Source: Zootoca vivipara
Lineage: Eukaryota
NCBI RefSeq assembly: GCF_963506605.1
Contig: NC_083287.1
Coordinates: forward strand, 59,458,001-59,522,000
Direction: 5' to 3'
Length of the DNA: 64,000 nt
Positions 30,916 through 62,170 of this stretch are shown piece after piece. The notes beneath the pieces are model-generated. The model was not told the DNA's origin. It ran no database searches and saw only the letters and a list, made by a program, of their open reading frames with translations. How positions within the stretch are numbered: position 1 is the first letter of the stretch; each line of letters begins with the position of its first letter. A program made the position numbers and the translations under genes.

Positions 30916-31049
30916 TATTCTCCTATTCTTGTGTCAAATAGCACAGGAGATCACAAGAGAAGGGTGACAGCTGTGGGAAGACATCAATTCCTGGTGCGGT
31001 TTGAAGAAACAATGGTGTCCATCTCTTGTTGGTGTCCATCAAGGAAGGC

Positions 31050-32250
31050 GGCAAGATGTCCTGCTCCAGAGGACGCCTTTGCCAACCCTCTCTGGCCACT
31101 GTCTTCTGGCGGGAAGGGGCTCCGGGGGACCCCCGCCCGAGGGCTGCCCAGACCGTCGTGTCCAGCTGGGCCGGGCGGCGAGCAGCCAGCGGAAGGTCCC
31201 GGCCCGGCCAGACTCATCTGCCCTCTCGCCTCGGGCTCCGCAGCCCAGAAGCGGCGGCAGCGGCAGCAGCGGGCAACCGAGCGCCGCGCTCCCTCCGGCC
31301 GGGTCTCCGAGGGGGCAGGACTCCAAGTCCCGTCGTGCACCGCGGCGGGGGCGGGGCCTGCGCGGCCAAGGAGCGTGACTGCGACCTCCCCGGGAAGCGA
31401 AGAAGGGAGACGCCGCCGCCACCGCCGAAGGAGCCCCCGGAGCCCCCGGGCCAGGGAGGCAGGCAGGCAGGCAGGCAGGGAGGGGGCTCGGCGATCCCTC
31501 CCCCAGGTGGGTCCCCTTCGCGCGGGGCAGCAGCCCCTCTGCCACCCCCCCCCGGGAGTCGCACGGGGGAAGAGGGGCGCCCCCTCCCCAAACCCCCCTC
31601 GGGGGGGGCGGCAGGCTGGGCCGATCGGTGGCTGACCCCACCCCACCCTGGGGCTTGACCCCCCCGCCCCCGCCACGCCCCCTCCCTCCCTCCCCCCGCG
31701 GGTGTCGCGGGCGGGGGCGGCCTCAGAACAAAGGCGGCCCCGGATCCCGGCGGGGGGGCAGGGGGCAGCAGCCCCGCCCCCCACGCCCACCCCACCCCAA
31801 GGGCGCCGGGCGCAGCCAGCCCATGATGACCGCCGGGGGAAGGGAGGGGGGGTCAGCGACCCCCAGGGCGGGCGCGGCGGGGTCGGGGCTTCGCTGTCCT
31901 CCTTTGGGCGGGGCGGCCGCGGGGCACATACCTGCTGCTGCTGCATCCAGGGCTGAAGAAGCGGAGCTCATCTCTTGCACAGCCCTCCTCAGAGTGCGGG
32001 GGGGGGGGTGTAAGATGTGGCCGAGCCCCCCAAATGTGGCAGGGCTTCTCTTCCTGCCCTGCAAACACTTCACAATCTATTTCAGGCCAGTCAAGGATCT
32101 CAGCCGGCAGGTGGATTTTGACATTCTTCCAGGCAGGCGGGTCAAGGGCGCAAGGGGCGGGCAGAGTTCGCACCCAGGTCCCAAGCAATCCATTGCATAG
32201 GCGTGGAGAGCGCGGCCAGGAGAGTGGAATAAAAAGGTGAGAGAGAGAGT
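31050..32250 (+). promoter_or_regulatory. CpG island: probable promoter and non-coding first exon of the KRAB-Harbinger fusion gene (candidate donor CAG|GTGGGT at 31506/31507)
   Basis: Strong CpG island about 1.2 kb after the ABCB8 stop and upstream of the first coding exon. No protein-like ORF lies within it. Confidence 0.65.
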
Positions 32251-33405: not shown

Positions 33406-36400
33406 ATGGCAGAAGGGGTCCAAATGCAGAGGGAGGTGATGCTGGAAAATTGCAAGCCAGTGGCCCCACTGGGTGAGGACAACCCCCTCTTTCCTCTCTT
33501 TATCAAAGATAGTTTTTTTGGGGGGGGGAGATCTGGGGGTTTCTGCTGCGTGAAGAGCTCAGGGTCCGAGGCACCCGCTCCACACAGACACAGACTAGCA
33601 AAGGGTCAGCAAAGTTTTGCTGGCAGGCAGTCTGGCCACTAAAATCGGTCCAGGAAGAGCAGGGAGTGGATCAGAAAGGGAGGATAAATTGGATGCCCCT
33701 TTGAAGAAAGCTCTCCTTCATGGGGAAGTTAAGGTGTGGTGGTTGGGGGGGGGACAGGATGGGAAGGAGGGGGAATGGCCTCTTTGACAGTCCCTCTTTA
33801 TCCAACTTTATCCCAACCCCCACCACACACACAGACACTATATTTAAAATCAAAAGAATATTGTATTTAATTTATAGTGAAATGGGGGGGAGGGAGAGGT
33901 TTATGTGTGAATGTAACCAAAAAGGAGGAACCAAATAAACCACCTGTGACTTGTTTTCACAGACCCATCCTGGCTCTTCTGATGTAGAGTTCCCTTAGTT
34001 TTAAGGTGTTTTTTACTATTTCTACAGATTTCCAAGGGTGGGGAGGTGCAATGTCATCCCCCCTCCCCACACACGCTTCTTGAGTTGGACAAAGTCCTTC
34101 AACGTGGGCAATTTATTTATAAAATTTATAAATATATACACCACTTGATTGTTTTTAAAAAACAAATTCAAAGCAGTTTACAAGAAAGAGGGGGGAAATA
34201 AAATTTTCAGTAGGAAAATTTTAAGACCTTCTAAAAGCTGGGTGGTGGGGTCTGAACTTGGGCTTAGTGCAGACCAGGGTTGGCTACCATTTGGGGGCCC
34301 ATCAGCCCCGTCCACAAAATGCTCAACCTGAGTTTAGTGGCTCCCTTCGCACGCTCGCGGCGTGTCGGGGTGTACACCTTGTTGGCCTGCCTTTGGGTGA
34401 AGGCGTGCAGGAGGCACAACCCCCCCCCCTTCACCTTACACAAAGGTAGGCTTGCAGCGTGCTTCTTTTGTACACTGGGGTCGTCTTTATGAGGCACAGA
34501 GGGGAATGACCGACCAGTTGCCGACATGCGTCACTCAATACTTAGATTTGTGGGTTTCTTTCTTTGGTAGCTTTTGTGCACCCCTTTATTTGAGTGCTGT
34601 CTGACCGAACCTTCCAGCTCCGCTCTTTAGCTTTTAAATTCTGACTGTCTTTTGGTTTGAAACATGAGCTGTTTTGTGCAATGGGTCCAGTGCAGGAGTT
34701 TTATGATACCTCCGTGGGAAAATCTGCATTCAGAGTTGCAAGGGAGCAGCTGCCTTGGAGAGACTTTGGGGACTCTGGTGGTGGCTGTTTTCATAGAATC
34801 ATAGAATCATAGAGTTGGAAGAGACCACAAGGGCTATCCAGTCCAACCCCCTGCCAAGCAGGAAACACCATCAAAGCATTCTTGACATATGGCTGTCAAG
34901 CCTCTGCTTTAAGACCTCCAAAGAAGGAGACTCTACCACACTCCTTGGTAGCAAATTCCACTGCCGAACAGCTCTTACTGTCAGGAAGTTCTTCCTAATG
35001 TTTAGGTGGAATCTTCTTTCTTGAAGTTTGAATCCATTGCTCCGTGTCCGCTTCTCTGGAGCAGCAGAAAACAACCTTTCTCCCTCCTCTATATGACATC
35101 CTTTCATATATTTGAACATGGCTATCATATCACCCCTTAACCTTCTCTTCTCTAGGCTAAACATACCCAGCTCCCTAAGCCGTTCCTCATAAGGCATCGT
35201 TTCCAGGCCTTTGACCATTTTGGTTGCCCTCTTCTGGACACGTTCCAGCTTGTCAGTATCCTTCTTGAACTGTGGTGCCCAGAACTGGACACAGTACTCC
35301 AGGTGAGGTCTGACCAGAGCAGAATACAGTGGTACTATTACTTCCCTAGATCTAGATGCTATACTCCTATTGATGCAGCCCAGAATTGCATTGGCTTTTT
35401 TAGCTGCTGCATCACACTGCTGACTTATGTCAAGTTTGTGGTCTACCAGGACTCCTAGGTCCTTTTCACATGTACTGCTCTCAAGCCAGGTGTCACCCAT
35501 CCTGTATTTGTGCCTTTCATATTTTTTTTTTTTGCCCAAGTGTAGTACCTTACATTTCTCCTTGTTAAAATTCATCTTGTTTGCTTTGGCCCAGTTGTCT
35601 AATCTGGTTTTAGACCACGAAGCAGCAAGAAAGGAAGATTCCCCTTCTCCCCTTCTCTCTCTCTCTGTCCTATATTGGAGGGTCATGGTCTTCTTTCAGC
35701 TCCTCTAAAGCCGGGAGCTAAAGAGAAGACCTTGGCTTCTCTTTTTGGCACTCGCTTTGGGCCTGTAAGGAGTCAAATCCATGTTTCCACAGGGTGAATA
35801 TGGATTGAATCTGCTTTGCGGACATGCCCCAGATCTTTGCAAACGTACACCGATTAGACTTCCAGGCCTGACAAGGGACTGAAGGCAGCCTAGTGCTGGC
35901 CTCCCTCCATGGCCCAGGCCGGGACCCCCAGCCGGTTGCCATGGACTCGCCCTTCTCTTCCTTGCAGAGGGAATGGAGGGGGCCTGGCTTCCTCCCTTGC
36001 AAGAACTGCCCTCGCCCTGGAAGGCAGGGGGTTCTTTGCCCCCTCATGGGTGCCCAGACCCAGCGAGGTGGGAGCTTGACCTGACTGCCGCCGGATGGCT
36101 CATTTGTGGCCCCTTTGGAGACCCCATGGCTCGAAGCAAGGCAGTCTCGTGGTGCAGGAGGCCCAGCTGCGCTCCTGCTTCCCCATGGAAGGATCCCAGG
36201 GGCAGCTCGGGGCTTTTACGTCCTGTTTTCAGGCCAGGAGGCTGGGCTTGAATGTCTGCTGAGGACAGCCTGGCCTCTGTGGGCATCTTAAGGACAGAGG
36301 AAATGCATCACACGCCATGCCATGTGTTTGGTCCATCTTCCCTACGAAGGAAGGTCGCAGCATTTGGGACTTTTCAGTTTAGAGAATAGGAAACGGAGAG

Positions 36401-38987: not shown

Positions 38988-41900
38988 GCAACACTGCACC
39001 AAGGGGAGGGGGTTGGCTTCCTTGCGGTGCAATCTGGTGACAGTCACATGGCTTTTATAATGAAGCGCCTTAGATGCCCCTTTGTCCATCTCTGGCATCA
39101 GGACAAAGGCTCTGGGCCTGGGCTGTCCTTCGGGGAGAGCTGCTGGGCTGTGAGGGGGTGCTCTTTGAGGGGCACCTTGAGGTGGGGCTCTGGGGTGCCC
39201 ATTTCAGCTCAGCTGCAGGCCTTCCTTTCCTCAGGGGCCCAGAGTCATCGGCTTGTAGAGCTGCAAGGGACCCTGAGGGAATTCCAGACCAACCCCCTGC
39301 AATGCAGGAACTGTGGCAGAAGAATGGCCTGTGCTCTGGGTCTCAGAAGGATGGCTGCTGTTTGCGCATGGGCAGGGTGGGGTCTTAGGGAATAAACCCT
39401 GTGGAGTCGGCCTGCACACACCCAGGATTGCCGTGATAGCAAGGGTTGAGTTGAGTCTTTGCATATATAAAAGGATGTCATATAGAGGAGGGAGAAAGGT
39501 TGTTTTCTGCTGCTCCAGAGAAGCGGACACGGAGCAATGGATTCAAACTACAAGAAAGAAGATTCCACCTCAACATTAGGAAGAACTTCCTGACAGTAAG
39601 AGCTGTTCGGCAGTGGAATTTGCTGCCAAGAAGTGTGGTGGAGTCTCCTTCTTTGGAGGTCTTTAAGCAGAGGCTTGACAGGCATATGTCAAGAATGCTT
39701 TGATTGTGTTTCCTGCTCGGCAGGAGGTTGGACTGGATGGCCCTCGTGGTCTCTTCCAACTCTACGATTCTATGATTCTACCCCCTAGGGAACAGCTAGG
39801 GATGTCAGCTTCAAAGTGCCCTCTTGGGGGCAGGTTGTGCTGTGCAAAGGTTTTGATGTGCTCCCCAACCCAAATTGTTAGCTGTTGTAATCTTAGCAGC
39901 GGTTAGAAGGTTGGACACTATTTATGGATCATTTTCTGGAATAACATCTTTTGGATGTTATCTTTTAGAAGCCCCAAGGCTTCTAAGACAAGGCAAAGCG
40001 GGTGGCTTGCGGATAAGCTTCCGCCCAGCACCTCTCTCTTTGGAAACATACTACTGGTTGGAGCCCCCCATTTGTTTATTACATTTGCACCCCACTTTTC
40101 CTCAGGGAGGTCCAGGTGGTGTCTAGAGGTCTCCTCCTCACAATGACCCTGCGAGGGAGGTTTGGCTGAGAAGCAGGGACTGGACTCAAGGTCACCCCCA
40201 GCCAGCTTCCTGGCCGAGGGGGGATTTGAACCCTGGTCTCTCCCAGTCTGAGCTGCTAACCACTATGCCACACTGCTTGCAGAGAAGTGTCGTGTGGCGG
40301 ATATCTCACCTGCCACACCTGCAGGAAAAGGACAAGCCACGTGGTGGAGGGAGAGCCAGGATCAGGATCGAGTGGGTGGGTGGGTGGGGGTTGCAGGCAC
40401 CCAGAATGTTGTTTTCTTCCACTTCCCAAGAGGCTGCTAGCTGGCCACTCTTTGGTTCAGAGTTAGCAACTCAGATAGGTCAGCTAATTGCCAAATGGTA
40501 CCTTAAACTTCAGTTGTGGTCCCCGCAATGGAATGGCTAGGCATCATTTTTTCATCTGTGAATCCCCTCCCCCATTTCTATACCATTTTATATTTTAAAG
40601 AAAAAAATCTCAAAAGTGCTTTACAACCCATTGAAACATCAAATAAAACCATCCGGAACAAAATAAAAAACCCCCCAAAAAATCAAGCTTCAAGGGGAAT
40701 ATTTCAGATCCTTCTCCAAGCGACATTTTGGTTTCCCCATATTTATTTGGCGACTTCATTTATAGAGCTGCCCTACAGCAGAAGAACGGCAGGAAGGCAG
40801 CGTGGGGCAGTGGTGAGAGTGTCAGATGAGGACCTGGGAGATCAGGGTTCAAATCCCCACTCGGTCCTGAAGCTCACTGTGTGACCTTGGAGTTAGTTGC
40901 AACCTCTTAGCCTACCTCACAGGGTTGTTGTAGGGATTAACTCACTAAGGGGCATGAACCATGTACTCCTTGGGAGATAAATGCAATAAATGAGCTCTTC
41001 TGCTCACCTGATTCAAAAAGCTGGAGGTGCCTGGGGAATTTTGAGCACTGCTTCTTTCTCCTTGGCAGACTCTGCATCCACCAAAGATTTAGCCGCCTGT
41101 GACCTTGAGGAGGAGGAAGAGGGCGAGCAGAAACAAGGGGAGGCCAACGGGGCAATGGAGGAAGACATGTATGTCGGGGAGCCCCCTGGCGAGAGAGAGG
41201 CAGCCCTCACTGACCCCCCTGCGCAGGACGAACCAGGCAAAGGAGCCTCCCCCAACAGCAGCAGCCCAGGTAGCACTTTGGGGCTGAATGTATGGGGCAA
41301 AAGGGAAAAGCCATTCCTCAGATCAGAGCCTCCCACACTTTGGGGGCCACAACCCCCCCCCCAAGTCCCATAAACTCATCCCAGTGCCCCACCCCGGCCC
41401 TATTAAATGCATTATTCAGAACAGTGCTTTACAGCGAGGGAAATTACAACAATGGATTTCACATCGAGAACAATTAATTGCTTGTTCCAATTAAATCCAA
41501 TTAAAATTATTCATGTTATTCATTTCATTTCTATATATCTGTAAGCCACCTTGAGTCCCTGCCAGAGGAAAAGGCAGGGTCTCAATAAATATAAATATAA
41601 AACAATAAAGTCGTACTTTGGAAACCAAATGGAATCCGTTCCGGAAGTCCGTTCAACTTCCAAAACAGTTGGAAACCAAAGCGCGGCTTCTGATTGGCTG
41701 CAGGAAGCTCCTGCAGCCAATCGGAAGCTGCAGGAAGCCCTGTCGGATGTCCAGCTTCCAAAAATAGTTCCCAAACCAAAACAGTCACTTCCAGGTTTGC
41801 GGCGTTCGGGAGCCAAAACGTTCAAGAACTAAGCTGTTGGAAAATCAAGGTACGGCTATATAAGCACTTTTTATTTGTGACAAAAAACCTTCAAAATGGT

Positions 41901-44900
41901 TTACAACTTGCATTAAAATGTTCCAAAATAAAACATCAAATATAAAATATGCATTCTGAGGGTTTTGTTTTGTTTTTGTTTTTTTTTACAATAAAGCAGT
42001 GTGTAATTTTTATGAAATAAATAAATGAACGAAATGGCAGCATCTTGGAGCAGTGCTTCCCTGCCGGAGCCCCATTTGGCAGCCCTGCCTCCACTGCAGA
42101 GCCACATTATGCCTGCTCTGCCATTGTAAGAGCTCGGTCTTGTCGTGTGGATCTTTTACACTTTGGAACTCCCTGCCTGTTGACTTCCAGCAAGCGCTTT
42201 CGCTGCGCTCCTTTCGGCACCTGCGAAAAAACACCCCTGTTTTAGAGAAGCCTGCCCAGATGTTCAGGAAGCTGATGGGAGATTTAATCTGCTCTGCGTC
42301 TGTTGTTTTAGCTTTTCCAAAGTCTCGGATGTTTGTTATGAGTTCCTCTTACTAGTAAAGTCTTGTTTTATCTCTTTTTTTGGTCAAACACTTGGAGGTT
42401 CTTCCTTTTTAACTGAAAATCTTACGGAAGAAATGACTCCTCAGAGCAGCCCTGTCTCTCCACTTTGGGTTGCTATACATCTGGAATTTCCTGGACAAAT
42501 CCAGAATACTGCAATCGCAAGCTGTGTCTGGGCAAAAATCAGGGAAATGTCCAGGGCAATCCAATGTTGGCAGTGTTGGTTTTGCACAAAAAAGGTCAAC
42601 AACTGTTTTGTCCAGATTTTCACTTTCTGAAATATGTCAACCCTCTCTCCGCTTGCTCTCTAGGCTGCCAAGGCCCCCCCTGGATGTCCCCCCGCCCTCC
42701 AGATCCACCTGGCGCCTGGCAGGGCCTCTGCACCTGGGAGTGCTGGCACCAGCGAGTCCTGGAGCTCCTGGAGCAGGAGCCGCCGGCCAAGAGCCCCCCA
42801 CGGGCCGCTCAGGTGAGCCGAGGGAGTGGGCCGTGGGGTCCTTGGCAGGAGGGAGGGGGAAGAAGCAAGAGGGGAATGTCCCTTGCCAGTTGCTGGACGC
42901 CACTGGGGGGGAGGAGGAGACTCTTGTGGGCTCTTCCTCTATTCTTATGGAGCCTCCAGGTCCAGAGGCAGTCTATCTGGACTCCTAGGTTCTTTGGGGA
43001 GTTTTTCCTGCTGAGAACAGGAGGCTGGCTAGAGGGGCTCCCTTTGGCCTGATCCTGCAGCCCCGTCTCCTGCTCTTACGTCCAGGGCAGGGCCGAGCGG
43101 GAGTCACTGCTGGGGACGCAGGGCGCTTCCTCCTCTCCCGCAGGGTGGGTGGGACTTCTCTGTGCCAGACGGCCTTTCTCTTTTTGTGCACGGCACCCTC
43201 CCCTCTTGGTGTGGGGTCTTTGTGGGAGATCTGCCCCAGCCCCCTGCAGCAGACGGGCCTTGGCTGTCCTCCCCTGGGGAGGGACCCCTCTCTCAGTGCC
43301 TTCTGCCTCACTCCTGATGTTTGGGGGTGCTCAGCCCAAGCTCTGAGCTGCCACATTCTCCCCCCCCACTTCTCTGGAAGAGGCTTATTTTCAGAGGGTG
43401 GGCAGAGGGTGCTAGCTCCCCTGACACCGAGCAGGATCCGGCCTGCTTTCCTTCCAGGTGACGTTTGAGGACGTGGCTGTCTACTTCTCGCCTGAAGAGT
43501 GGGCCCAGCTGATGGCGTGGCAGAAGGACCTGTACTGGGGTGTGATGAAGGAGAACCACGCCCTGGTGGCCTCGCTGGGTGAGGGTCCCCCTCCGAAAGC
43601 CCCCTGGGGGAGGGGGGGTCGCAGCCGCTGGCCCCGAGACACCCCGGAAGGGGAGGCAGCGGCTCTCTCGGGTGGGGTGGGGGTGATGGCGGAGCCTTCA
43701 AGTCAAATCAGGCAAGCTTCACCGGTGATCCACTGGATCCCTTGAAGTTCTGGCTTTACCCCCCCCCCCCATCGCCAGCTGAAGGCTCTTTGTCCTCCCT
43801 TCAGGCCCTTCCACCTCCACAAGGTCCAGCCTCTTCCTGAGGCCTCTCCTAGCTAAGCCTGGCTTGACATGGGCTTCCAAGGGGGGTGAGGCACATGGTC
43901 CCCCCTAGCCGGGACCATTAGGTGGAGCCTCCATGTTCTGCCGCAGTCTTCCTGTGAGTTCCAGAGAGGGCACCTGGCTGGGCCCTGCTCTCCAAGACCC
44001 AGGGGGCTGGGCTGGATTTGGCCCTGCTCTCATCCGGCCACCAGGCTCCTCTTCCTCCTTTTTGGCAAAAGTCCCCTCTCAGGGTGGCAGCGGACTAGAT
44101 GCCCCTTGGCGATCCCTTCCGACGATGCTTCTACGTCCAAACTCTTTTTCCGTGGCCAGGAAGGCCTGAGGCAAATCTCTGACCATTGCCATGGGGAAAC
44201 CAGTTAGAGGCCCTCTCGCTGCTTCCTTGCTCCTCCAGACATGCCACATCCACCCCCCATCTGCCCCCTTCAGGCCCTTGGCACACCCTTGGGCCCAAGT
44301 CTTTCCCGCAGGTGGTGACTTTTCCACTTTCTCTCCCTCGCATGCAGCACCTGCTCGTGTCCCCCAGCCAGAGGTCTTGGGCCGGATAGAGCGAGGGGAG
44401 GCCCCTCCTTCCGAGGCCCCCATGGAGGAAAAGCAGGAAGAGGCTCCCCGAGTGCCCAGCCCAGGTGAGTGAGGCCCCTCGAGGGGCGAAGGTACTGACT
44501 GAGTCCTGCCTTTAAGGGGGTTGGGCTAGATGACCCTTGGGGGTCCCTTCAAACCCTACAACTTTGTGAGCAGCAAATGCGGCCACTGCTGAACCCGATG
44601 CCTCTCAGTTGGCATCAGTTGGTGACCTGGTGCGCATGTGGGTTGGCTGCTCTGGGCTGGCTATGGAGAGCAGTGAGTGGGAATCCTTTTCTGGAGCTCC
44701 TGTCTCCTTTGTGCATCCACAGGAGAAACCCCTTGACAGGCAGGAGTCTGGGGGTGTCTTACCCCCAGGGTTACACCACCCCTGAGGTGTGGCTTCTTAT
44801 CCAAGGCGAGCAGGGAGCAGAGGAAGCTGCTCGATGTTGGTCTGTGGAGCTCAGGATTGCCTACACTGGCTGGCAGCAATCCCTGGCAGCGTTTTGCTCT

Positions 44901-46218: not shown

Positions 46219-49200
46219 TGGCTCTGGCTGCGGCAGGACTCGCCCCCAGCCCCCTCCCTCTCTCCCCCTGGGTGGCAGCGGCAAAGGCAGTCCCTTCCCC
46301 CGGAGACCTTGGGGGTTCCCTCCTCCAGCCTTAAATTTAGACACAGCTGGATTGTAAGCAAGCAAACAAACTTCAAGGCAGTTTACAAAAAAGATAAGCC
46401 CATCAAATGATCGTGAAGAAAAATTAACAACAATTTAAGACTTTTGAAGAGGAAAAATAACACCAAACTAAAAAGCAGAATTAAAACTCGCGCCAGCATT
46501 CTAAGCACCTGGTTGGCTTGTCTAAACAGGAATGTTTTTTAGCAGGTTCTGAAAGGGGGGAAGGCGAGTACCTGCCCAGTGTCAATAGGCAGGGAGTTCC
46601 AAAGGGCAGCTGCTGCCGCACTAAACAACCAAGTTCTTACAGATGTGGAACAGGTCTTAGGTGGCACCTGGAGCTGTGCCCGTTCCTCTGATCAAAGCGG
46701 TCAAGTGACACCTGTGGGGTCAGACGATCTCCTAGGGAGACGGGTCCCAAGTTGTTAAGGGACACTAATAGTAGCTCTAGGAATTCTCTTTCCATCCCTT
46801 TTCCTTACAAACAGGTAGGTGCAATTTGACTCTACCTTCTAAGGTTCCCTTCTCCTTCTCTCTCCCACTCTCTCTTCTGGGGGCAGGTTCTGGGGCTAAG
46901 GGGCAGCTGGAGGTCAGGAGAGGACCAGGTGGGGAGCATCCCTGCAGCAAGACTCCGACAGAAAAAGCCAAGAGGGACGCTCTGGGTGAGTGGCGCCAGA
47001 AGGCTTAGTGGCAGAGGCCCTGCCTTGCAGGAAGAAGGTCCCGGGTTCAAGTCCCGCTGGCATCTCCAGGGAGGGCTGGGAGAAAGACCCTGCTGAGACC
47101 CTGGAGAGCCATTGCTGCCGGTCAGTGCAGGCCACCCTGGGCTAGAGGTATGCAGCTGGATGGTCTGGGGCATGTGCTCCCTCTCCACCCACCCTGGGGG
47201 TGTTTTCCTGCCCTCCTGGGAAGGAGTGGCTCTGGGCGAATCAGGCTGGCCAGAAAGGGAACCTGAGGGGTGGGGGAAGGGGCACGGGAGCACAAAGGGG
47301 AGCTCTCTGCAAATGGGGGGGGGCTACTTGAGTTGCAGGTGAGTTTCTCCAGGGACACAGAGGGTCTCTGCCTCCCTCCGGAGCAAGGCTGTTTGTGCCC
47401 CTTTGTGATTTGAAATGGGGTGGTCCGAAATGGGCAGAGTCACTGGGGGACCTGCAAAGGCCATCACATCCAGAAGAAGGTTGCCTTGGCGACCTTTTAT
47501 TTCTTCCCCCAGCCACCTGCTTTTTTGCTGAAGAACCTTGAGCTTCCCAGCTTGGAGTGCACCCTCTTTCCTAGCCCTGGCATATAGACGTCATGCCGTG
47601 TCACTATTCATTTATATGGCACCTATTGGCCTAAAACGACACCCTGGGGCAAAGCAGAGAATGCAAACACAACAGAAATCAAACTAAATCTTGTTTCAAA
47701 AGTATTCAAAGACATCTGTTTTCCTTCCCTTAAAGTCCTTCAAGAGCAGCTCCTGGCTTGGAGGGTCCCAGGCAGGGTGGGGGCAAGGCAGGGGCATGGC
47801 TGGCCCTCTGGTCTCTCACCTGTATTGACCTGCCCTTTCTCCTCTGTCCTCCTTCCCCAGCTGACACCAAGCCCCACATCAAGTGCGAGGAGCAGCGGGG
47901 GGACCCCCAGGGGCCAGCCACCCACCACTGCAAGGACTGCGGCTCCAGTTTCCCCGACCGGGACGCCCTGATTTCCCACGTCCTGCGCACCCACTTTGGC
48001 GAGCGAGCGCTGCCTTGCCCGCAATGCGGAAAGTTCTTTGGCAGTGACAGCAGCCTGGCGGCCCACCAGAGCACCCACGGCCTGGAGCGAGTCTTCACCT
48101 GCATCGACTGCAAGAGCACCTTTGTCTACGAGGAGCAGGAGGCAGGCCGGATCCACGCCCAGCTGGCCCTGGGGAAGCTTTTCAAGTGCTTTGGCTGCAG
48201 CTGCAAGATCGCCGCCCTCCTGGCCAGAGACCAGAAGCCAGAGGCACAGGAGGGCTGCCCTCCCTTTGGGGAGCTGGATGCCACCTTCTACAGGTGAGGA
48301 GTCTGGGATTTGCGGGAATGGATCCTCCAGAGTCAGGGGTCACCTCCAGGCATCCTTGACCTGAGAAATTCATCTTGTGGGTTTTTAAAATAAAAAGCTC
48401 CTGGCCTTTGGTCATTCTCTTCCCAGCCTTCCACCATCCAAGGGCCAAAACTAACAAGATTGAATTTCCAAAGCAACAAATGTCAGGTTCTGCAATTAGG
48501 CAGGAAGAATCAGATGCACAAATCTAGGATGGGGGATGCCTGGCTTACTAGCAGCGCATGTGAGAAGGATCCTAGGGGTCTTGGTGGACCACAAGCTGAA
48601 CATGAGTCAACAGTGTGATGCAGCAGCAATAGGAAAAAGCGAATGCTATTCTAGGCTGCATCCACAGAAGTCTAGTGTCCAGATAATAGAATCCTAGAGT
48701 TGGAAGAGACCCCCAAGGGCCATCCAGTCCAACCCCCTGCCGAGCAGGAAACACCATCAAAGCATTCTTGACATGTGCCTGTCAAGCCTCTGCTTAAAGA
48801 CCTCCAAAGAAGGAGACTCCACCACACTTCTTGGCAGCAAATTCCACTGCCGAACAGCTCTTACTGTCAGGAAGTTCTTCCTAATGTTTAGGTGGAATCT
48901 TCTTTCTTGTAGCTTGAATCCATTGCTCCGTGTCCGGTTCTCTGGAGCAGCAGAAAACAACCTTTCTCCCTCCTCCATATGACATCCTTTCATATATTTG
49001 AACATGGCTACCATATCACCCCTTAACCTTCTCTTCTCCAGGCTAAACATACCCAGCTCCCTAAGCCGTTCCTCATAAGGCATCGTTTCCAGGCCTTTGA
49101 CCATTTTCGTTGCCCTCCTCTGGACACGTTCCAGCTTGTCAGTATCCTTCTTGAAGTCATAGAAGGGAAATAAAAAAATTCCTTCAGTAGTACCTTAAAG

Positions 49201-52200
49201 ACCAACTAAGTTTATATTTTGGTATGAGCTTTCGTGTGCATGCACACTTCTTCAGATACCAAGAAGTGTGCATGCACACGAAAGCTCATACCAAAATATA
49301 AACTTAGTTGGTCTTTAAGGTGCTACTGAAGGAATTTTTTTATTTTGCTTCGACTCAGACCAACACGGCTACCTACCTGTATCATAGAAGGGAAGTCATA
49401 GTCCGGCTCTCTTCTGCCTTGGTCAGACAAACACCTGGAACACTGTGTCCCTTTCTGGGCTCCACAATTTAAGAAGGATGTTCACAAGCTGGAAGGTGGG
49501 CAGAGCAGGGAAACCAAGACGATCAGGGGTCTAGAAGCCAAGCCTTATGAAGAGCAATTGAAGGAGACGGGAAGATTAGCCTGGAAAAGAGGAGTGAGAG
49601 GAGAGGAGTGAGAGGGACCCAAGGGAGAGCCATATTCAAATATCTCCACGGCTGTCACAGGGAAGAAGGAGCAAGCTTGTTTTCTCCTGCTCTGGAGGGC
49701 AGGATCCAAACCAAATGTCAGGGAGGTTGCTGGCTACCCTCGAGCAACGACACTCCAAACCATCTTGTCTTTAGTACTTTTATTGTGAAAGCTATTTACA
49801 ATGCAAGAGCTTCCTCGAAAACATGTCTACTCAGTACGATCAGATTCTCCCAATGGCGCTTTTCGGCTCCTCCCCCAGCAGGGTAGTTTGGGGACCCCAA
49901 ATCTCCTCCCCCTGCATTTGCGAGCCGCTGATCGCCTCAGTTCCGGGGTGAATTTGAAAGGACGCCCCTCTGCTGTTTCCCCGCTGGAACTCTCTGCCGG
50001 CCCCTCCTTCCTTGCTGGTATCCCAGGCTGCAGGTAGGGCTCTGAGCCCTGGCCCGCTCCTCTCACTTCCTCCTTCCTGTCTCCTGTCCCTCCGCTGTTG
50101 TCCGAGCCATTCGAAGAGCTGGATTTGATGAGGGGTGGCTGTTCCTTGCATACCTGCCAAGTTCCTCTCTGAAAAATAAGGGACCGGACGGAAGTAGCAT
50201 ACCGGAAGTAGCGCGGCGGCCATTTTGGAACTGGGCGGAGCATGCTCAGAAGTGACTTTTGATGCTGCTGTGCCCAGTTCCAAAATGGCCGCTGCACCAG
50301 AATAAACCGGGGGGAAACAAAAAAAATCGTTTTTTCGGCTGGGGACAGCTGGAAAAACGGGGTTTTTCCTGGGAATACGGGAGACTTGGCAGCTATGGTT
50401 CCTTGTAAGCCCATCCCTTACACCAATGGATTCAAGTTACAAGAAAGGGTATTCTGACTAAATATCAGGAATAAGCTTTCGGACAGTAAGATCTATGCCA
50501 CAGCAGAAGGGTCTCCCTTATGAGATGGTGGACTCTCCTTCCTTGGAGGTCTTTCCCATCTCTGGAAGAACTATACAATTCCTGTTGCCTTACAAAACCA
50601 AATAATATTTTACAGGATTCATCTCATCCTGGATATAGTCTTTTTGCACCATTGCCTTCAGACAAGAGTTACAGAACAATTAAATCAAGAACGAATAGAT
50701 TAAAAAACAGCTTCTATCCAAGAGCTATAACCATCTTAAATGCTGTAACTAAATAATATGATCTTGGGGAGTTGTGATGGGTGTGGGTGTAATTGTGTTT
50801 TTGTTTTGTTTTTATGGGATGGCATTCAATTTCGTTGTACTATGTACAATGACAATAAAGTATCTATCATCCATCTATCTATCTATCTTCAAGAGAGGTT
50901 GGATGGCCACCTGTCAGGGATGCCTTAGCTGTGATTCCCCCATTGCTGCGGATTGGCCTGGATGACCCCGGGGGTCCCTTCCAACCCCTCCATTCTGCCT
51001 CACTGCCCCCCTCTCCTTTTCATCCCTCAGCCGCCAGCGCGCAATGGAGCAGGTCCGCCAGCGGGCCGCCCACTGGACCACCTCTGAGACCAAGGCTTTT
51101 GTGGAGCTGTGGGGGGACGACCGCGTCCAGACGGCCCTTTTTGACAACTATCGCAACGAGGTGCAGTACAAGCGGCTGTCGGACAAGATGCGGAAGATGG
51201 GCTTCCACCGCAACCTGGAGCAGTGCCGCCAGCGGGCCAAGGACCTGCGCAGGGGCTTCAAGGAGATCCAGGACGGCAACCTGCACTCCAACCGGGCACG
51301 GCAGACCATGCCCTTCTTTGCCCTCCTGGACCGCTTCCTGCTGATGAGCCGGGGGCTGGTGGTGCCCAAGGTGTGCGTCAACAGGACCAAGCAGAGGGGG
51401 CGCAAGGGCAGGGGGCGCAGGGAGGAGCCCCAGGGGCAAGCCCCCTTCCTGCTCGCCCAGCACCCCAACTTGCAGGACCTGGCGCTGCAGGAGCAGGATC
51501 CGTACCTCCATGCCCTGGCGCTCCCTGGCTTCCACCTGCAGAGCCACTTCACAAGCCAGTATCGCCAGGGGGCCAGCCTCCCTGGCTACCAGCTGCCGCC
51601 CCCCGACCAGGACCCCCCGGGCAACGCTGTGGGGCTGCCTGGTGGTCCGCTGGAGGGGCAAGACAAGGACTCGCCTGCCCTGCGACTGGCGGACTTCTCC
51701 CTACGGCCGCAGGACCCAGACGCCTCTCTCGCCATGGAGTCCTGCCGGGCAGCTGCTCGCAGCCAGAGCCAGGACATGGTGCTGAGCCCCATCAATGGGC
51801 TTTCAGCCACCAGCAGCCTCTGGTCAGAAATCGCCAGCATGACTACTATGGAGAACCCCACTGGCGTGGCAGCCCCAGGAAGTGCCCAGCGTGAGTATCT
51901 GCTTATTGGCTTATTTATTCCTTCACAGTATTTACAGCCTGACCTTCATTGAGCGTTTTCCATCCCAGAGCAAAGTAGTAGAAATGAGCACAGAAGCAAA
52001 ATATATAAAAACTGCAGAATCATATAAACAGGACCACTAAACAACTAGAAAACTTCTATCATACGCTAAACCAGGCACCCCCAAAATATGAACAACCAGA
52101 TTAAAAAAATTATGAATGACCAGATTTAAAAAATTATGAACGACCAGATTAAAAAAATTATCTACAATTATCAACAGGGTTAATGATTGAAAAGAAAATT

Positions 52201-54540
52201 AAATATTTAGGAGTGTGGTTAACTTGTCACTTATGGGAGGGATATCCGATAAAAATGCATGTGCTAACAAAAATGTTATTTCTGTTTCAAACAATATCAG
52301 TGATCACCAATACAATATGCTTTTAAAAATGGCAGAAAAATATCACTAGATTTATCTGGCAGGGGAAGAAACCAATAATAAAGTATGCCAAAGAAAGAGC
52401 TGGATTCTCCTTACCAGATCTGAAATTATATTTTGAGGTGTCTTGTCTTTGCCAGTTAAAGGAGTGGATGTCATTGGAAAACTGTTCCATATTAGATCTT
52501 GACGGACATTTGGCTGGCACGCCTATCTGTGGTATGACAAGGTTAAAGTTCATAAAGCTTTTTTGAATCATGTTATAAGAAAACTGGTGTATGAAGTATG
52601 GGACAAATACAAAAAATTATTAGAACACAAAACACCATGGTGGCCCTCTCCACTTGAAGCAATATTGGTGAAAAAAAGGAATACGAGAAATGATTGGACA
52701 ACATATAAAGAATTATTAAAAGTAGATCAAGGTTTAAAATTAAGGAGGTTTTAAGATATAAGGGAATTAGTACCCATTTTGTTGCAATATCACCAACTTA
52801 ATAAAGTGTTTGAGTTGTACAAAAAGAAGGGTTTTTTAAAATAAAACCTCCCAGTTTGAAAGGGAATTGTTAGAAAATAATTTAATAAATGGGGAAAGTT
52901 TGAAAAACTATTGTAAACAATGACACACATTGGTAGGGTTGACAAAAATTGAACTATAAAGAATTTATAAGAATAGAGTTATGAAAGAGATGCAGAGGAG
53001 GAAATCATTATATTAAGATCCACAATTGGGGGAGGGGGGAGTCAAAGGGAATTATATGTTTGTTTTTATTTCACTTGTATGTGTAAAATAGAAAATGCAA
53101 AAATAAAATAAGAGTCCGGCAAAAGCACCTTCCTGGTGTCAATAGGCAGGGAGTTCCAAAGTTCTGCCACACTAAAAGATCCAAGTTCTTACAAAGGTGG
53201 AGCGAGTATTCTGTGGCACCTGCACCCGTCCCGTTCTGCCATGTGGGGCAGGGCTATTTTGCAGAAACCGAACTATAAATATTGAGAAAGCAACTCATGC
53301 CTCTCTTTTTCTTCCTTCCACCCCCCCCCCATCAGCCTGGCACCCTGGGAAGGCCCCCAGCTCCTCTGCAAAGCGGATGCGCGACCTCCGCTTGCGCCGC
53401 CGGAGGCAGCGGGCCGCCATGGCACGGGTGCTGCTGGGCGCCAGCTACCGCCCCAACGACCGGACAGTGTGGAGCAAGACGCAGAAGACGGACTGGTGGG
53501 ACAACCTGGTGGCCGGGCCAGCCGAGGACGGCGAGTGGGTGCGCTACTTCCGCATGTCGCGGGAGGCGGTGCTGGAGCTGGTGGAGAGGCTGCGCCCCGT
53601 GCTGCAGCGGGAGGACACCAACATGCGGGCCGCCATCCCCGTCGACAAGCGCGTGGCCCTCACGCTCTGGAAGCTGGCCACCTCGGAGAGCTACCGCTCG
53701 GTGGCCCACCAGTTTGGCGTGGGCGTCTCGACCGCCTCAGTCATTGTCATGGAGGTGTGCGAGGCCATTCACGACGTCCTGCTGCAGGACGTGGTCCAGC
53801 TGGGGGATGCCCAGGCCGTCATGGAGGGCTTTGAGCGGCTTGGCTTCCCCAACTGCATTGGCGCCGTGGACGAGACCCACATCCCCATCCTGTGCTCACC
53901 CCACGGTGCGTCGGCCTACATCAACGGCAAGGGGCTGGTTTCCATGGTGCTGCAGGCCCTGGTCGACAGCGCAGGGCGCTTCATGGATGTCTACGCCGGC
54001 TGGTCAGGCGGCCTGCAGGACTCGGGCCTGCCGTGGGGCTCCCCGCTCTTTGAGCGCATGGAGAAGGGCACCTTTGGCCCCCAGACCACCACTGAGATCG
54101 AGGGTGTGGCCGTGGGACCCGTCCTACTGGGGGGTCCTGCCTGCCCCCTGCGGCCGTGGCTGATGAAGCCGTACACAGACACCCCGGAGGGGCCTCGGCA
54201 CCACTTCAACCTGTTGCTGGGCAAGTGCCGCAGGGCCGTCACCTACGCCTTTGAGCGGCTCAAGGGCCGCTGGCGCTGCCTCCTCAAGCGCCTAGACGTG
54301 GCGGAGAAGAACGTCCCGCTGGTCATCGTCGCCTGCTGCATCCTGCACAACATCTGCGAGAGCCGCAACGAAGCCATGCAGGAGGGTTGGGAGGAGGGCA
54401 TGGACTACGCTGACCTGCCCTCGGCGGAGGGCCACGCAGACGCCTTCTCGGACGCGGAAGAAGGGGCTGGGGAGGCGCACGGCGTCCGTGAGGCCTACTG
54501 CGCATTCTTCGAGAAGAGGCGGCAGGCAGAGGAGCTCTGA
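33406..54540 (+). CDS. Predicted KRAB / C2H2 zinc finger / Myb-SANT / Harbinger transposase fusion protein, 1083 aa. Exons: 33406-33472, 41069-41269, 42664-42812, 43458-43578, 44348-44464, 46887-46985, 47861-48293, 51031-51890, 53336-54540
   Basis: Nine exons with polypyrimidine-AG acceptors and GT donors. Phases 1,1,0,1,1,1,2,1 all match, giving 3252 nt (1084 codons) with no internal stop. AATAAA lies at 54809-54814. The first three exons and 46887-46985 are less certain than the KRAB, zinc finger, Myb and transposase exons. Confidence 0.8.
34791..35605 (-). mobile_element. Young CR1 LINE 3' portion (about 0.8 kb)
   Basis: ORF2 C-terminus ([12 protein letters not shown]...[18 protein letters not shown]...RRLRGDMI) and a TCATAGAA-repeat tail. 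Confidence 0.93.
38948..38985. repeat. (CA)n microsatellite
   Basis: Seen directly in the sequence. Confidence 0.95.
39460..39780 (+). mobile_element. Young CR1 LINE 3' fragment
   Basis: Same family as 34791-35605. Confidence 0.9.
40798..40940 (+). mobile_element. tRNA-derived, MIR-like SINE (a related copy lies at about 37598-37730)
   Basis: A/B-box-like head (cagtggtgagagtg...ggttcaaatccc) and core ctcacagggttgttgt. Confidence 0.6.
41617..41860. mobile_element. Partial Tigger-like MITE with an internal hairpin
   Basis: Palindrome gcttctgattggctgcagga-agc-tcctgcagccaatcggaagc and a TIR-like end (aaggtacggctata). Confidence 0.55.
43458..43578 (+). CDS. KRAB-A box exon of the fusion gene
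   Basis: [40 protein letters not shown], with the typical phase 0 / phase 1 boundaries. Confidence 0.95.
44348..44464 (+). CDS. KRAB-B-like exon of the fusion gene
   Basis: [15 protein letters not shown] resembles the KRAB-B consensus KPDLISRLERGEEP. Phase 1-1. Confidence 0.8.
45118..45883 (-). mobile_element. CR1 3' end present as three tandem copies (199-bp period)
   Basis: Units start at 45118, 45317 and 45516. The third unit extends further into ORF2. Confidence 0.92.
47003..47150 (+). mobile_element. tRNA-derived squamate SINE (related minus-strand copies at about 5630-5740 and 6525-6665)
   Basis: agtggcagag...ggttcaagtccc...ggcatctccagg...gagaccctggagagcc. Confidence 0.6.
47861..48293 (+). 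CDS. Zinc-finger exon: two canonical C2H2 fingers and two degenerate CxxC units
   Basis: [29 protein letters not shown] linker, [21 protein letters not shown], then CIDC and CFGC without His pairs. The exon ends at a strong donor (CAG|GTGAGG). Confidence 0.9.
48686..49156 (-). mobile_element. Young CR1 3' fragment nested in the older CR1
   Basis: [34 protein letters not shown]... with a CR1 tail. Confidence 0.9.
49170..49381. mobile_element. Penelope-like element terminal-repeat foldback
   Basis: 85-bp inverted arms (49168-49252 and 49261-49345, one mismatch) with an 8-nt spacer. A 13-bp direct repeat (tcatagaagggaa) lies at 49157-49169 and 49382-49394. Confidence 0.8.
49219..49262 (-). ncRNA. 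Minimal type I hammerhead ribozyme motif
   Basis: Minus strand reads UUGGUAU CUGAAGA A GUGUG CAUG CACAC GAA AGCU C AUACCAA: stem I of 7 bp, CUGANGA core, stem II, GAAA, palindromic mini stem III and a UC cleavage site. Confidence 0.75.
49716..50422 (-). mobile_element. Solo LTR (about 450 bp excluding the nested MITE)
   Basis: TG...CA ends with terminal inverted repeats tgtcaggga and tcccttaca, flanks ccaaa/ccaat, and AATAAA on the minus strand. It splits a CR1 sequence. Confidence 0.7.
50149..50397. mobile_element. hAT-superfamily MITE
   Basis: TIRs catacctgccaagt and acttggcagctatg, with a perfect 8-bp TSD (gttccttg) at 50141-50148 and 50398-50405. Confidence 0.88.
50553..50886 (+). mobile_element. 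Rex1/Babar LINE 3' fragment
   Basis: PSLEELY...[41 protein letters not shown] followed by AATAAA and a (TATC)n tail. Confidence 0.8.
51031..51890 (+). CDS. Myb/SANT-like (trihelix/MADF, MSANTD-type) DNA-binding domain exon
   Basis: [16 protein letters not shown]...[36 protein letters not shown]...[12 protein letters not shown] matches the Myb_DNA-bind_4 pattern of Harbinger Myb proteins and ZSCAN20/29-type domains. Confidence 0.9.
52087..53112 (+). mobile_element. Degraded L1-clade LINE fragment in the intron between the Myb and transposase exons; starts with a 24-bp x3 tandem repeat (52087-52158)
   Basis: Broken frames ([49 protein letters not shown]) are homologous to the L1 at 11496-12860. 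The end is A-rich. Confidence 0.8.
53336..54540 (+). CDS. PIF/Harbinger transposase-derived (HARBI1/ALP1-like, DDE_Tnp_4) terminal exon
   Basis: W..YFRMSR, HTH-like [66 protein letters not shown] and [10 protein letters not shown]. Confidence 0.93.
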
Positions 54541-54808
54541 GGGGCGCTGTGCGTTGTGTGTGTGTGTTGTGCGAGGACACCCCCTTCCCCACCCCACCCC
54601 GTGGGTGTTGCAAAGACGCGGGGGGGGGGGGGGAGAGAGACAGGAACTCAGGCTAACTCAGGTTACAATTCTCTTCCGTGACTTCGCAGGGGGACAACGT
54701 CCAGGGTCCCCCTCGGTGAAGTCTGCCTGCTCACCGGTTGCACTGTTTTGACCTTTTATAAACTTTTTATAAAAATTGGCTTAGTACCAAGTTTTCACCT
54801 TGGACCTC

Positions 54809-54814
54809 AATAAA
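54809..54814 (+). terminator. Polyadenylation signal of the fusion gene
   Basis: AATAAA about 270 nt after the stop codon, with T/GT-rich sequence downstream. Confidence 0.7.
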
Positions 54815-55293
54815 TCCTTGTTCTTCTTGAAAGGAATTTGGTGGGCGTGTCTTAAATGTGAAATTTCTCAGGTTTCCCCAGTCGTGAATGAGGCTGGCAG
54901 GATGGGGGGGGGAGGCCCCCAGTTCACTTTGCAAAACAGGGCTTGGTGCAGAATATGAATGAGCACAAGAAACACATGGGTTGGGGACAGTGAAGGGACA
55001 AGTTCAGTAGGGTGCGCTGATTTTTACAACAAAGTTGTAATGATTTGGGAATTCAAGAGATTTCTTGGTTAAATTAATATAGCTTAGTTTTGCTTGGTAA
55101 GTAAACTGTAAGATGGCATGGACATCATTAAAAATGACTGCAGTAATTTTATATTAATATTTTTACTTTTATTTATTAATACTATTTATTTTTAGCATTA
55201 CCTGACACTTTCAAAAGGTAAAATTAAAATAATTTGGTTTTCCAAAAGCAGTTGATGTGCTTTTTAATCAAATGTAGATTTGCCAAGCTAAAC

Positions 55294-60697: not shown

Positions 60698-62170
60698 TCA
60701 CTTCTTCTTCTGCACATGGGCACAGTCATACTTTCCCCGCACGACCTTGAGCTTGACCCCCGGCAGGTCCTGCGTCCTCCCGCCCTCCACCAGGACGATG
60801 CTGTGCTCCTGTAGGTTGTGCCCTTCACCCGGGATGAAGCAGATGGCCTCCTTGCCGTTGCTGAGCCGCACACGGGCACACTTGCGGTTGGCCGAGTTGG
60901 GCTTCTTGGGCTTGCGGATCATGGTCTTCAGCACCACCCCTTTGAGCTGGGGGCAGCCACTGGTGGGGCCGGGCTTTGGCGGAGGCAGCTTGGGGCGGCC
61001 TTTGCGGTGCATCTGGTTGAGGGTGGCCATAGGACAGCTCGGGGGTGGCAGCACCAGGCAGGGTGGTGGAATGAAGCTGCGAGGAAGGGCAGCAGCTCCT
61101 GGCAAAAGAAAAAGTTAAGGGTCAGGAAAAGGGACACCCAAATGATCAAGGGGATGGAGAGACTCCCCTAGGAAGAAAGGCTATGGCAATTGGGGCCTCT
61201 TAGCTTAGGTGAGTAAGAGGCAAAATGGAGAAGTTTATAAAGTTACGTCTGGCATAGAGAGATTGGATGGAGAGTCTCCTTAGACAGGGAATCATGGACA
61301 TGCAATGAAGCTAAATCTTAGAAGATTCAGGACAGATAAAAGGGAGACTTTTTTCATGCAGTTAAACTGTGGAACTTGATGCTACAGGAAGCAGTGATGG
61401 CCACCAACTAAGACCAATTGACAGAGGAGGAGAGGGCTATTAATGATGGCTGTGCTCTGCCGCCATGGTCCGAAGCAGCAAATATCAGTTTCTGGGAACC
61501 CCCAGGCAGAAATAGCATTGCTCTTGTGCTCAGATCCTGCACCCGGGATTTGCATAATGGGCACCTGTTGGTGACTGTGAGGACAGGATGCTGGACTGGA
61601 TGGGGCCCCTTTGTCCTGGTCCAGCAAGGCTCTCCTTGGAGAGGGCACACTGCCCTACACCTGACCCCACCATGCACCCAGTTTCAGGCAGGGGTGGGAC
61701 TGACGTACCACTCGCACCAATGAATCATAGAGTTGGAAGAGACCCCAAGGGCCATCCAGTCCAACCCCCTGCCAAGCAGGAAACACCATCAAAGCATTCT
61801 TGACAGATAGCTGTCAAGCCTCTGCTTAAAGACCTCCAAAGAAGGAGACTCCACCACATTCCTTGGTAGCAAATTCCACTGCCGAACAGCTCTTACTGTC
61901 AGGAAGTTCTTCCTAATGTTTAGGTGGAATCTTCTTTCTTGAAGTTTGAATCCATTGCTCCGTGTCCGCTTCAATGCCCTTATGGAGCCTTCCCAGCCCC
62001 CCTCCCGCATGGGGATCAGCTGCCCTCCATGTTCTCCGAGAGGAAGGGGTCTGTCTCCCCCAGCTCCTCCCGGCAAGAGGCTCCTGGCTGAGCGACTCTC
62101 AGGGCAGCCACCTACCCCAGCGCAGAGGAGCCGCCAGCGCCCTCAGCAGCCCAGCAGGAGCCATCATCAT
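60698..62170 (-). CDS. MRPS12: Mitochondrial ribosomal protein S12 (uS12m). Coding exons 62170-62116 and 61098-60698; a probable 5'UTR exon ends at 62484
   Basis: Presequence [19 protein letters not shown] spliced in phase 1 to ...MATLNQMHR...[18 protein letters not shown]...GHNLQEH...[11 protein letters not shown]. Confidence 0.95.
61722..61971 (-). mobile_element. Young CR1 3' fragment in the MRPS12 intron
   Basis: Same CR1 family as the other young copies. Confidence 0.88.

Follow-up and report, generated by a model that had tools for sequence, protein, structure and literature searches.

The window analysed here, 64,000 nucleotides of the Zootoca vivipara genome (contig NC_083287.1, positions 59,458,001 to 59,522,000), contains on its forward strand a gene, LOC118092265, that joins a KRAB domain, C2H2 zinc fingers, a Myb/SANT DNA-binding domain, and a PIF/Harbinger transposase. 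The interval 53336 to 54540, described in the initial annotation as a Harbinger transposase domain that had lost two of its three catalytic residues, is the last of nine coding exons of this gene and is 100% identical to the end of the database record. The open frame is real, but position 53336 follows a pyrimidine tract and AG and is a splice acceptor, so the interval is an exon and not a stand-alone open reading frame. Nine GT-AG exons between 33406 and 54540 form a single 1083-residue frame, which matches the gene model P0002 at 1067 of 1083 residues. Pfam searches of six orthologue models give the domain order KRAB-A, two C2H2 fingers, Myb/SANT, helix-turn-helix (HTH), and DDE_Tnp_4. The features of the gene are as follows.

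31001..32000, + strand: CpG island, the putative promoter and 5′ end of the gene (GC 0.75, CpG observed/expected 0.66; a Podarcis model matches 31165-31394)
33406..33472, + strand: coding exon 1 with the ATG of the 1083-residue isoform (GT-AG chain reproducing P0002)
41069..41269, + strand: coding exon 2, acidic and of low complexity (GT-AG chain; a single contig from run X1 links it to exons 3 and 4)
42664..42812, + strand: coding exon 3, with a Trp/Cys motif before the KRAB domain (68-96% identity in 11 of 12 orthologue models)
43458..43578, + strand: coding exon 4, KRAB-A box (Pfam KRAB, E 3e-21)
44348..44464, + strand: coding exon 5 (GT-AG chain)
46887..46985, + strand: coding exon 6, present in P0002 and skipped in the model P0001 (gene models and GT-AG chain)
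47861..48293, + strand: coding exon 7, two C2H2 fingers and a CxxC...CxxC module (domain search; an X1 contig covers 47892-48293)
51031..51890, + strand: coding exon 8, Myb/SANT trihelix (51071-51337) and variable linker (Pfam Myb_DNA-bind_4, E 1e-16)
51891..53335, + strand: phase-1 intron inherited from a Harbinger Myb gene (intron match in Myb paralogues; spliced out in RNA)
53336..53442, + strand: basic helix resembling a nuclear localization signal (NLS), the 5′ part of exon 2 of the Myb gene (profile score; 89-100% conserved)
53420..53460, + strand: probable Myb/transposase DNA junction, approximate (Myb likeness ends at ~53442 and transposase likeness starts at ~53458)
53458..53805, + strand: helical N-terminal domain of the transposase with the HTH (53644-53778) (HTH_Tnp_4; predicted local distance difference test (pLDDT) score mostly >90; 82-97% identity)
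53806..54363, + strand: RNase H-type core with triad D (53869), G (54133), and T (54241), a predicted pseudo-nuclease (Pfam, codons, AlphaFold2 (AF2), alignment)
54364..54540, + strand: acidic tail, terminal helix, and stop codon (frame; AF2)
54809..54814, + strand: AATAAA, candidate poly(A) signal (motif read)

The last splice junction was observed directly. In one X1 contig, 51890 is followed directly by 53336, and three raw RNA reads (X23) and contigs of organisms B and C likewise place the end of the Myb exon immediately before 53336. The contig runs are presumed to be RNA, yet they skip the intron at its exact borders. Raw RNA reads on the last exon have the strand expected for a + strand transcript, while depth in the intron bin 52376-52849 is zero. 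Expression is low, with 31 reads on the last exon in ~6% of one raw run, some of them from paralogues, and splicing was seen for three of the eight introns (exons 2-3, 3-4, and 8-9) among the matches listed. The interval is the last exon of a spliced, transcribed, single-copy squamate gene. The Trp/Cys-rich motif of exon 3 (42664-42812), which among the 12 orthologue models is missing only from the 5′-short Pogona model, belongs to no Pfam family and has no genome paralogue below E 0.2.

Loss of the catalytic triad

The frame at 53336..54540 matches DDE_Tnp_4 (E 5e-19) and HTH_Tnp_4 (E 2e-4). Direct reading of the codons gives GAC (Asp) at 53869-53871, GGT (Gly) at 54133-54135, and ACC (Thr) at 54241-54243, so the D/G/T triad of the initial annotation is borne out by both codons and alignment, and the other motifs that it named, as well as an Arg-rich stretch, are all in frame. 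The spacing of the triad positions (88 residues from the first to the second, 36 from the second to the third) equals that in the three intact relatives checked, and two basic residues flanking the lost Glu, Arg at -4 and Lys at +7, are retained. In an alignment of all 143 matches, the 117 relatives outside the clade of fusion genes carry Asp, Asp, and Glu in 103, 104, and 104 sequences, respectively, with a complete Asp-Asp-Glu (DDE) triad in 88. Because the spacing is equal, the flanking basic residues are kept, and the columns are near-invariant in relatives, the register of the triad is secure. The substitutions are common to the orthologues, as the pseudo-nuclease proposal required: all 21 sequences of the fusion clade, from 17 named lizard species ranging from geckos to iguanians, have Asp followed by Glu at the first position, Gly at the second, and Thr, Ser, or Ala at the third. 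Furthermore, none of 40 listed differences (of 52) in a contig from a second species falls in a triad codon. The loss is therefore neither a sequencing error nor recent decay. Of 108 columns that are at least 90% conserved in intact relatives, the lizard protein keeps 88; the 20 changed columns include both lost triad positions and neighbouring His, Phe, and Tyr residues.

An AF2 model of the transposase part, built from 78 sequences, has a DDE-transposase fold (pLDDT 84, pTM 0.84), which together with the triad loss supports the earlier proposal of a pseudo-nuclease with a retained fold. Its best structural matches are piggyBac (Z 9.3, root-mean-square deviation (rmsd) 5.9, 244 residues aligned) and Tn5 (Z 8.9, rmsd 5.8, 245 aligned), followed by TnpA (Z 8.2, rmsd 4.7, 210 aligned); no solved Harbinger transposase was matched by sequence search or by Foldseek at E<=0.001. 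A full-length AF2 model from 16 close sequences was uninformative (pLDDT 35), and a homodimer prediction for the transposase part, which did not use the alignment, scored 0.00 and gives no verdict. In the predicted structure, as in ALP1 and HDP1, a Harbinger fold is intact and its catalytic triad is broken. In 11 columns at least 85% of the relatives have a basic residue, and eight of these columns remain basic in at least 12 of 14 clade sequences; on this basis we propose that the dead core adds DNA or protein contacts.

A metal site could in principle be rebuilt from the kept Asp and the Glu at 53872, the Glu at 54253, or the Asp at 54019, leaving residual nuclease activity. The Glu that directly follows the first Asp is present in 21 of 21 clade sequences and in 1 of 117 relatives, the Glu at 54253, four residues and one turn past the lost Glu, in 13 of 14, and position 54019 is acidic in 12 of 14. 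However, 58% of core columns are invariant anyway, so that the invariance of the first Glu says little, and as the next residue in a predicted β strand it would probably face away from the site. Active Tc1/mariner enzymes also commonly have Asp-Glu at the first-Asp position, and there the Glu does not act as a ligand. Seven relatives have both a Glu at +4 and the true Glu, the +4 residue is Gly in Varanus, and the conserved His, Phe, and Tyr near the active site have changed as well. Judged from alignment and secondary structure, a rebuilt active site is very improbable.

The probable Myb-transposase junction and conservation of the gene in squamates

Exon 8 corresponds to exon 1 of an ancestral Harbinger Myb gene, and its closest relatives are other squamate Harbinger-Myb proteins, which consist of a trihelix, a linker, a basic motif, and a long helical C-terminal half. 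A five-motif BLOSUM profile made with the fusion family left out scores 36.2 at the start of the last exon and 35.6-37.6 in 13 orthologues. Seeds left out in turn score 30-50, shuffled sequences reach at most 18.0 (0 of 2000 attain the score), and the maximum among 122 transposases is 12.8. The profile score does not amount to a blind test, because the seeds were chosen by eye once the likeness had been noticed and a weak sixth one (P0192) was left out; the intron match does not depend on it. All three Myb paralogues examined in the genome have a phase-1 intron 12-14 codons before an [EDK]R[MA] motif, and in paralogue L025 the intron register is identical to that of the last intron of the fusion gene. 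The profile score and the intron match indicate that the last intron and the first ~35 codons of the last exon are the Myb gene's own. The Arg-rich, NLS-like stretch of the initial annotation does precede the transposase domain, but originates from exon 2 of the Myb gene and not from the transposase. Because this stretch is Myb exon 2 with the same phase-1 intron, the Myb and transposase genes appear to have been fused at the DNA level, inside the last exon.

The fusion gene has lost ~50-145 N-terminal residues that relatives carry before the first conserved Trp motif of the transposase, and the Myb protein's C-terminal half is missing. In ALP2, HDP2, NAIF1, and Ping, the Myb C terminus is the part that binds the transposase, and the partner surface maps to the N-terminal half of the transposase (PMC7282668, PMC5339849). 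Most of that N-terminal half is still present in the lizard protein, which by analogy may still bind other Myb proteins through it. The window holds no other remnant of a Myb or transposase gene, and none of the other 16 Myb matches in the genome lies within 100 kb of the other eight transposase loci. A Myb search in a set of 5.8 billion sequences yielded 11 candidates only.

The 17 named species of the fusion clade comprise geckos, scincoids, lacertids, an amphisbaenian, anguimorphs, and iguanians. Myb and transposase occur in one annotated protein in 16 of the 17, and KRAB as well in 14. Orthology was assigned from a tree of 52 rows chosen from the matches, with HARBI1-like loci left out. 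In this tree the fusion clade (support 100/99) is sister to a stand-alone squamate family with an intact DDE triad (97/93), within a wider sauropsid Harbinger clade that includes turtle and alligator sequences (99/98). The lizard domain thus nests among sauropsid Harbingers and is not a HARBI1 orthologue. A separate locus (L116/L117), which we take to be HARBI1-like, keeps D/D/E, is split by an intron, and is not among the seven genome matches to the transposase core. Squamate history extends over more than 200 million years (PMC10379679). Outside lacertids, identity to Zootoca is 85-95% for the Myb domain (85-100% across all orthologues including lacertids), 89-100% for the basic stretch, 82-92% for the HTH part, 76-92% for the core, 78-88% for complete KRAB domains, and 31-54% for the linker. 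No snake, tuatara, or teiid member of the fusion clade was found among the sequence matches, though snakes appear in three sister families; from these matches, loss in snakes is possible.

Comparison with organism B gives 27.5 silent and 12.5 replacement changes, a nonsynonymous to synonymous ratio (dN/dS) of 0.15 (worst case 0.30, Fisher p 3e-9), for one species pair and 40 of 52 differences. This purifying selection on the transposase part agrees with the domestication that had been suggested from the window alone. The gene is single copy: a search with the core found at least seven matches from 31 candidates, the next best 57% identical, and a family-wide search found at least 11 matches at at least nine loci from 16 candidates, none with stop codons. 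An active PIF/Harbinger transposon would have an intact DDE triad, two separate open reading frames for transposase and Myb/SANT, terminal inverted repeats with a 3-bp target duplication, and multiple similar copies. Here a DDE_Tnp_4 domain is present with the triad D/G/T, Myb and transposase share one spliced frame, a lower-bound search finds no further copy, and 48300-55300 holds no credible pair of flanking inverted repeats (the best is 26 nt at 73%; others belong to other repeats or look like chance). Low expression is what a decaying transposon copy or an annotation artefact would also show, but a frame open in 17 named species, the low dN/dS, exact splicing in three species, and the single copy refute this explanation, which is hardly credible.

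Proposed function and comparison with known systems

We infer a repressive function, targeting led by the Myb domain, a role for the dead core, and an order of events. The protein is probably a Myb-guided, KAP1-recruiting repressor, in which the Myb domain would bind DNA and target the protein, KRAB would recruit KAP1/TRIM28 and repress nearby transcription, and the dead transposase core would serve as a constrained DNA- or protein-binding module. The initial annotation's pseudo-nuclease holds, but as a reading of the domain it was incomplete, since a KRAB-zinc finger-Myb fusion protein ends in this domain, an architecture that points to KAP1-type repression. The residues needed for KAP1 binding and silencing have been named for KRAB domains (PMC9753469). 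The Zootoca KRAB-A box has 12 of 12, with Ile11 as Val, and they are complete in 10 of 14 models, from geckos, scincoids, lacertoids, and iguanians. An ESM Atlas search with residues 95-200 retrieved KRAB clusters only. The gene differs from a classical KRAB zinc-finger gene, in which a tandem C2H2 array binds DNA: it has two fingers, and of 15 full models eight keep both intact, while decay in the other seven has left one (four models) or none (three). Because the fingers decay while the Myb domain is near invariant, Myb is the likely guide. A CxxC...CxxC module after the two fingers (~48092-48206) is kept in 14 of the 15 full models while the canonical fingers decay.

The fusion would have originated before geckos split from other lizards, when a rearranged Harbinger placed the Myb gene head-to-tail ahead of the transposase gene. 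Their frames would then have been fused at a DNA junction in exon 2 of the Myb gene, with loss of Myb's C-terminal half and the first 50-145 transposase residues, and splicing would have joined this Myb-transposase unit to a KRAB zinc-finger gene of the host. Loss of the catalytic D and E would have preceded the lizard radiation.

Several observations weigh against this model. Glu35 and/or Asn36, both essential in human KRABs (PMC9753469), are lost in 4 of 14 KRABs (Sceloporus, Sphaerodactylus, Varanus, and Elgaria). Conservation is also lower in KRAB than in Myb and transposase, and the main role of the protein may therefore be something other than KAP1 recruitment. The joins of exons 4 to 8, which connect KRAB to Myb, are supported by the in-frame GT-AG chain and public gene models, with no read or contig among those listed spanning them. 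The plant proteins HDP1 and ALP1 oppose silencing (PMC5339849, PMC4671723). Finally, all 29 metagenome Harbinger loci with a Myb match carry the Myb gene on the opposite strand, so that a tandem origin calls for a further rearrangement, itself unobserved, or for an atypical donor. These loci (n=80) are 28-45% identical and not the donor, and only 19 of the 80 include 1.5 kb upstream.

The same KRAB losses are consistent with a KAP1-independent chromatin adaptor, in which Myb and dead transposase are the functional core that brings a histone-modifying complex to DNA and KRAB is accessory, a one-chain version of the HDP1/HDP2, ALP1/ALP2, or HHP1/SANT pairs. Conservation is highest in Myb, the basic helix, and the transposase. 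In plants, HDP1 contacts IDM1 directly, and its full length is required (PMC5339849). However, the complete KRABs are spread across geckos, scincoids, lacertoids, and iguanians, and the partner is only postulated. We consider this alternative, which is compatible with a KAP1-recruiting repressor, rather unlikely. A broader proposal, possible but tentative, is that a peptide bond replaced the non-covalent Myb-transposase contact, creating a one-chain Harbinger complex under KRAB control with the dead core as adaptor for a chromatin complex. This dead core has been as conserved as the DNA-binding domain over the whole lizard radiation.

The initial annotation also suggested dominant-negative inhibition of active Harbingers. 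A guard of this kind, dominant-negative or KRAB-armed, would bind Harbinger ends or poison transpososomes. The Harbinger Myb domain binds terminal repeats (PMC9392472) and KRABINER binds cognate transposons (Cosby et al., bioRxiv 10.1101/2020.05.07.082677), and the gene may have begun in this way. However, no young or multi-copy Harbinger transposase was found in the lower-bound searches described above, in which all nine DDE_Tnp_4 loci are open-frame singletons, with 57% identity in the nearest. The protein lacks the half of Myb used for transposase binding in HDP2, NAIF1, ALP2, and Ping, plant ALP1 and ALP2 do not bind Ping proteins (PMC7282668), and the slow, uniform evolution is unlike an arms race. 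A present-day guard function is therefore improbable.

By the sequence criteria applied, namely a transposase domain in frame with a host domain over at least two exons and under purifying selection, the lizard gene is a member of the host-transposase fusion class, with a dead core resembling ALP1/HDP1. Both triad loss in domesticated Harbingers and the class of KRAB-transposase fusions are already known. KRABINER, KTIGD, KMARD, and KHATD (bioRxiv 10.1101/2020.05.07.082677) resemble it in the splicing of KRAB exons from a host gene to exons from a transposon, in purifying selection, in RNA support (in the lizard gene for three of the eight introns), and in lineage restriction; four KRAB-transposase fusions repress sequence-specifically, according to the same preprint. 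In contrast to these, the lizard gene contains both proteins of a two-gene Harbinger, Myb/SANT DNA binding, an internal DNA-level junction, and a dead core. In the Arabidopsis pairs ALP1/ALP2, HDP1/HDP2, and HHP1/SANT1-4, too, a Harbinger transposase with a lost triad works with a Harbinger Myb protein in chromatin control. The likeness to ALP1 drawn in the initial annotation extends to the triad, DGA in ALP1 (PMC4671723) and DGT, DGS, or DGA in the lizard gene, and a single triad change cripples Ping (PMC4671723). The plant pairs are, however, separate proteins joined via the Myb C terminus, whereas the lizard protein is one chain that has lost this C terminus and gained KRAB, and its origin is independent. 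Vertebrate HARBI1/NAIF1 and MSANTD1-4 are also domesticated Harbinger transposase and Myb genes, but older (jawed vertebrates or sarcopterygians) and unfused, and the function of HARBI1/NAIF1 is stated to be largely unknown (PMC9392472, PMC8616336). Both genes of one PIF/Harbinger insertion are kept at one locus, as here, in the insect pairs DPLG7/DPM7, APLG/APM, and LPLG2/LPM2, although as adjacent separate genes; the words "fusion" and "chimeric" do not occur in the available text of PMC9710019. Co-domestication of both Harbinger genes is known in the form of separate genes (PMC9710019, PMC9392472, PMC8616336). Sauropsid Harbingers of turtle and alligator and four further squamate families (A-D) form one clade with the lizard gene, with 42-57% identity and the same motif spacing, but most keep DDE and a longer N terminus and none has Myb in the same protein.

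We found no description of the lizard gene, or of any one-chain Myb-transposase Harbinger protein, in the literature searched, outside of which most subscription journals lie, and the six orthologue gene identifiers returned no papers. The available portions of PMC9179366, PMC9004415, PMC4482050, PMC5753468, and PMC10162687 hold nothing on it. PIF, Harbinger, and Myb receive no mention in the main text of the Cosby preprint, to the extent that it was available, but its Table S3 may list the gene; the screen covered RefSeq lizard models, so the gene could be catalogued in Tables S2-S3. An apparently domesticated Harbinger has been reported beside squamate TRIM genes (PMC12262214), a different locus as far as the window shows. 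Lost catalytic residues alone are a familiar outcome. The lizard gene suggests that, apart from splice capture, a new transcription factor can arise when a DNA junction, here still readable from the inherited intron, fuses two transposon genes. With a DNA-binding part, a dead enzyme, and a well-understood effector in one protein, its binding sites, its partners, and the role of its dead core can be probed by simple deletions. Were the one-chain proposal true, plant ALP1/HDP1/HHP1 would have a vertebrate counterpart for the first time, and the protein would stand at the centre of a group of domesticated squamate Harbinger transposase and Myb genes that has not been described before.

Related loci and the genomic neighbourhood

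The genome contains at least seven further open-frame Harbinger transposase loci (L002-L007, L116-L119; P0027-P0039, P0058, P0123). Families A-D, four of these, have orthologues across squamates, with triads ranging from intact (B) to G/G/E (C), and are apparently an undescribed set of domestications. There are also 16 further Myb/SANT loci (L009-L024), and relatives of these (P0147-P0149, P0184, P0188, P0197) include SCAN-Myb, KRAB-finger-Myb, and 4-8 Myb-repeat proteins. A Sceloporus protein (P0019) is a SCAN-KRAB-transposase fusion with D/D/K, and an Emydura protein (P0063) is a KRAB-transposase fusion with intact DDE.

Within the window, the fusion gene is preceded by a NOS-like gene (429-884), an ATG9 gene (8358-9248), and an ABC transporter gene (28350-29003), and followed by a ribosomal S12 gene (60722-61030); we take these to be NOS3, ATG9B, ABCB8, and MRPS12, respectively. 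In human, the NOS-like, ATG9, and ABC transporter genes map next to an old cluster of KRAB zinc-finger genes (7q36.1), from which the host KRAB gene may have come. On the - strand, 55305-58010 holds a long interspersed nuclear element (LINE), presumably of RTE/BovB type and likely young, with an open frame of 901 residues encoding endonuclease and reverse transcriptase. AT-rich LINE-like remnants lie at 11496-12863 (- strand) and 52100-53100, the first open for 455 residues with no Pfam match. A near-perfect palindrome at 49162-49351, with 91-nt arms at 97%, resembles a miniature inverted-repeat transposable element and is abundant in RNA reads and contigs, and a 41-nt hairpin is present at 50213-50295.

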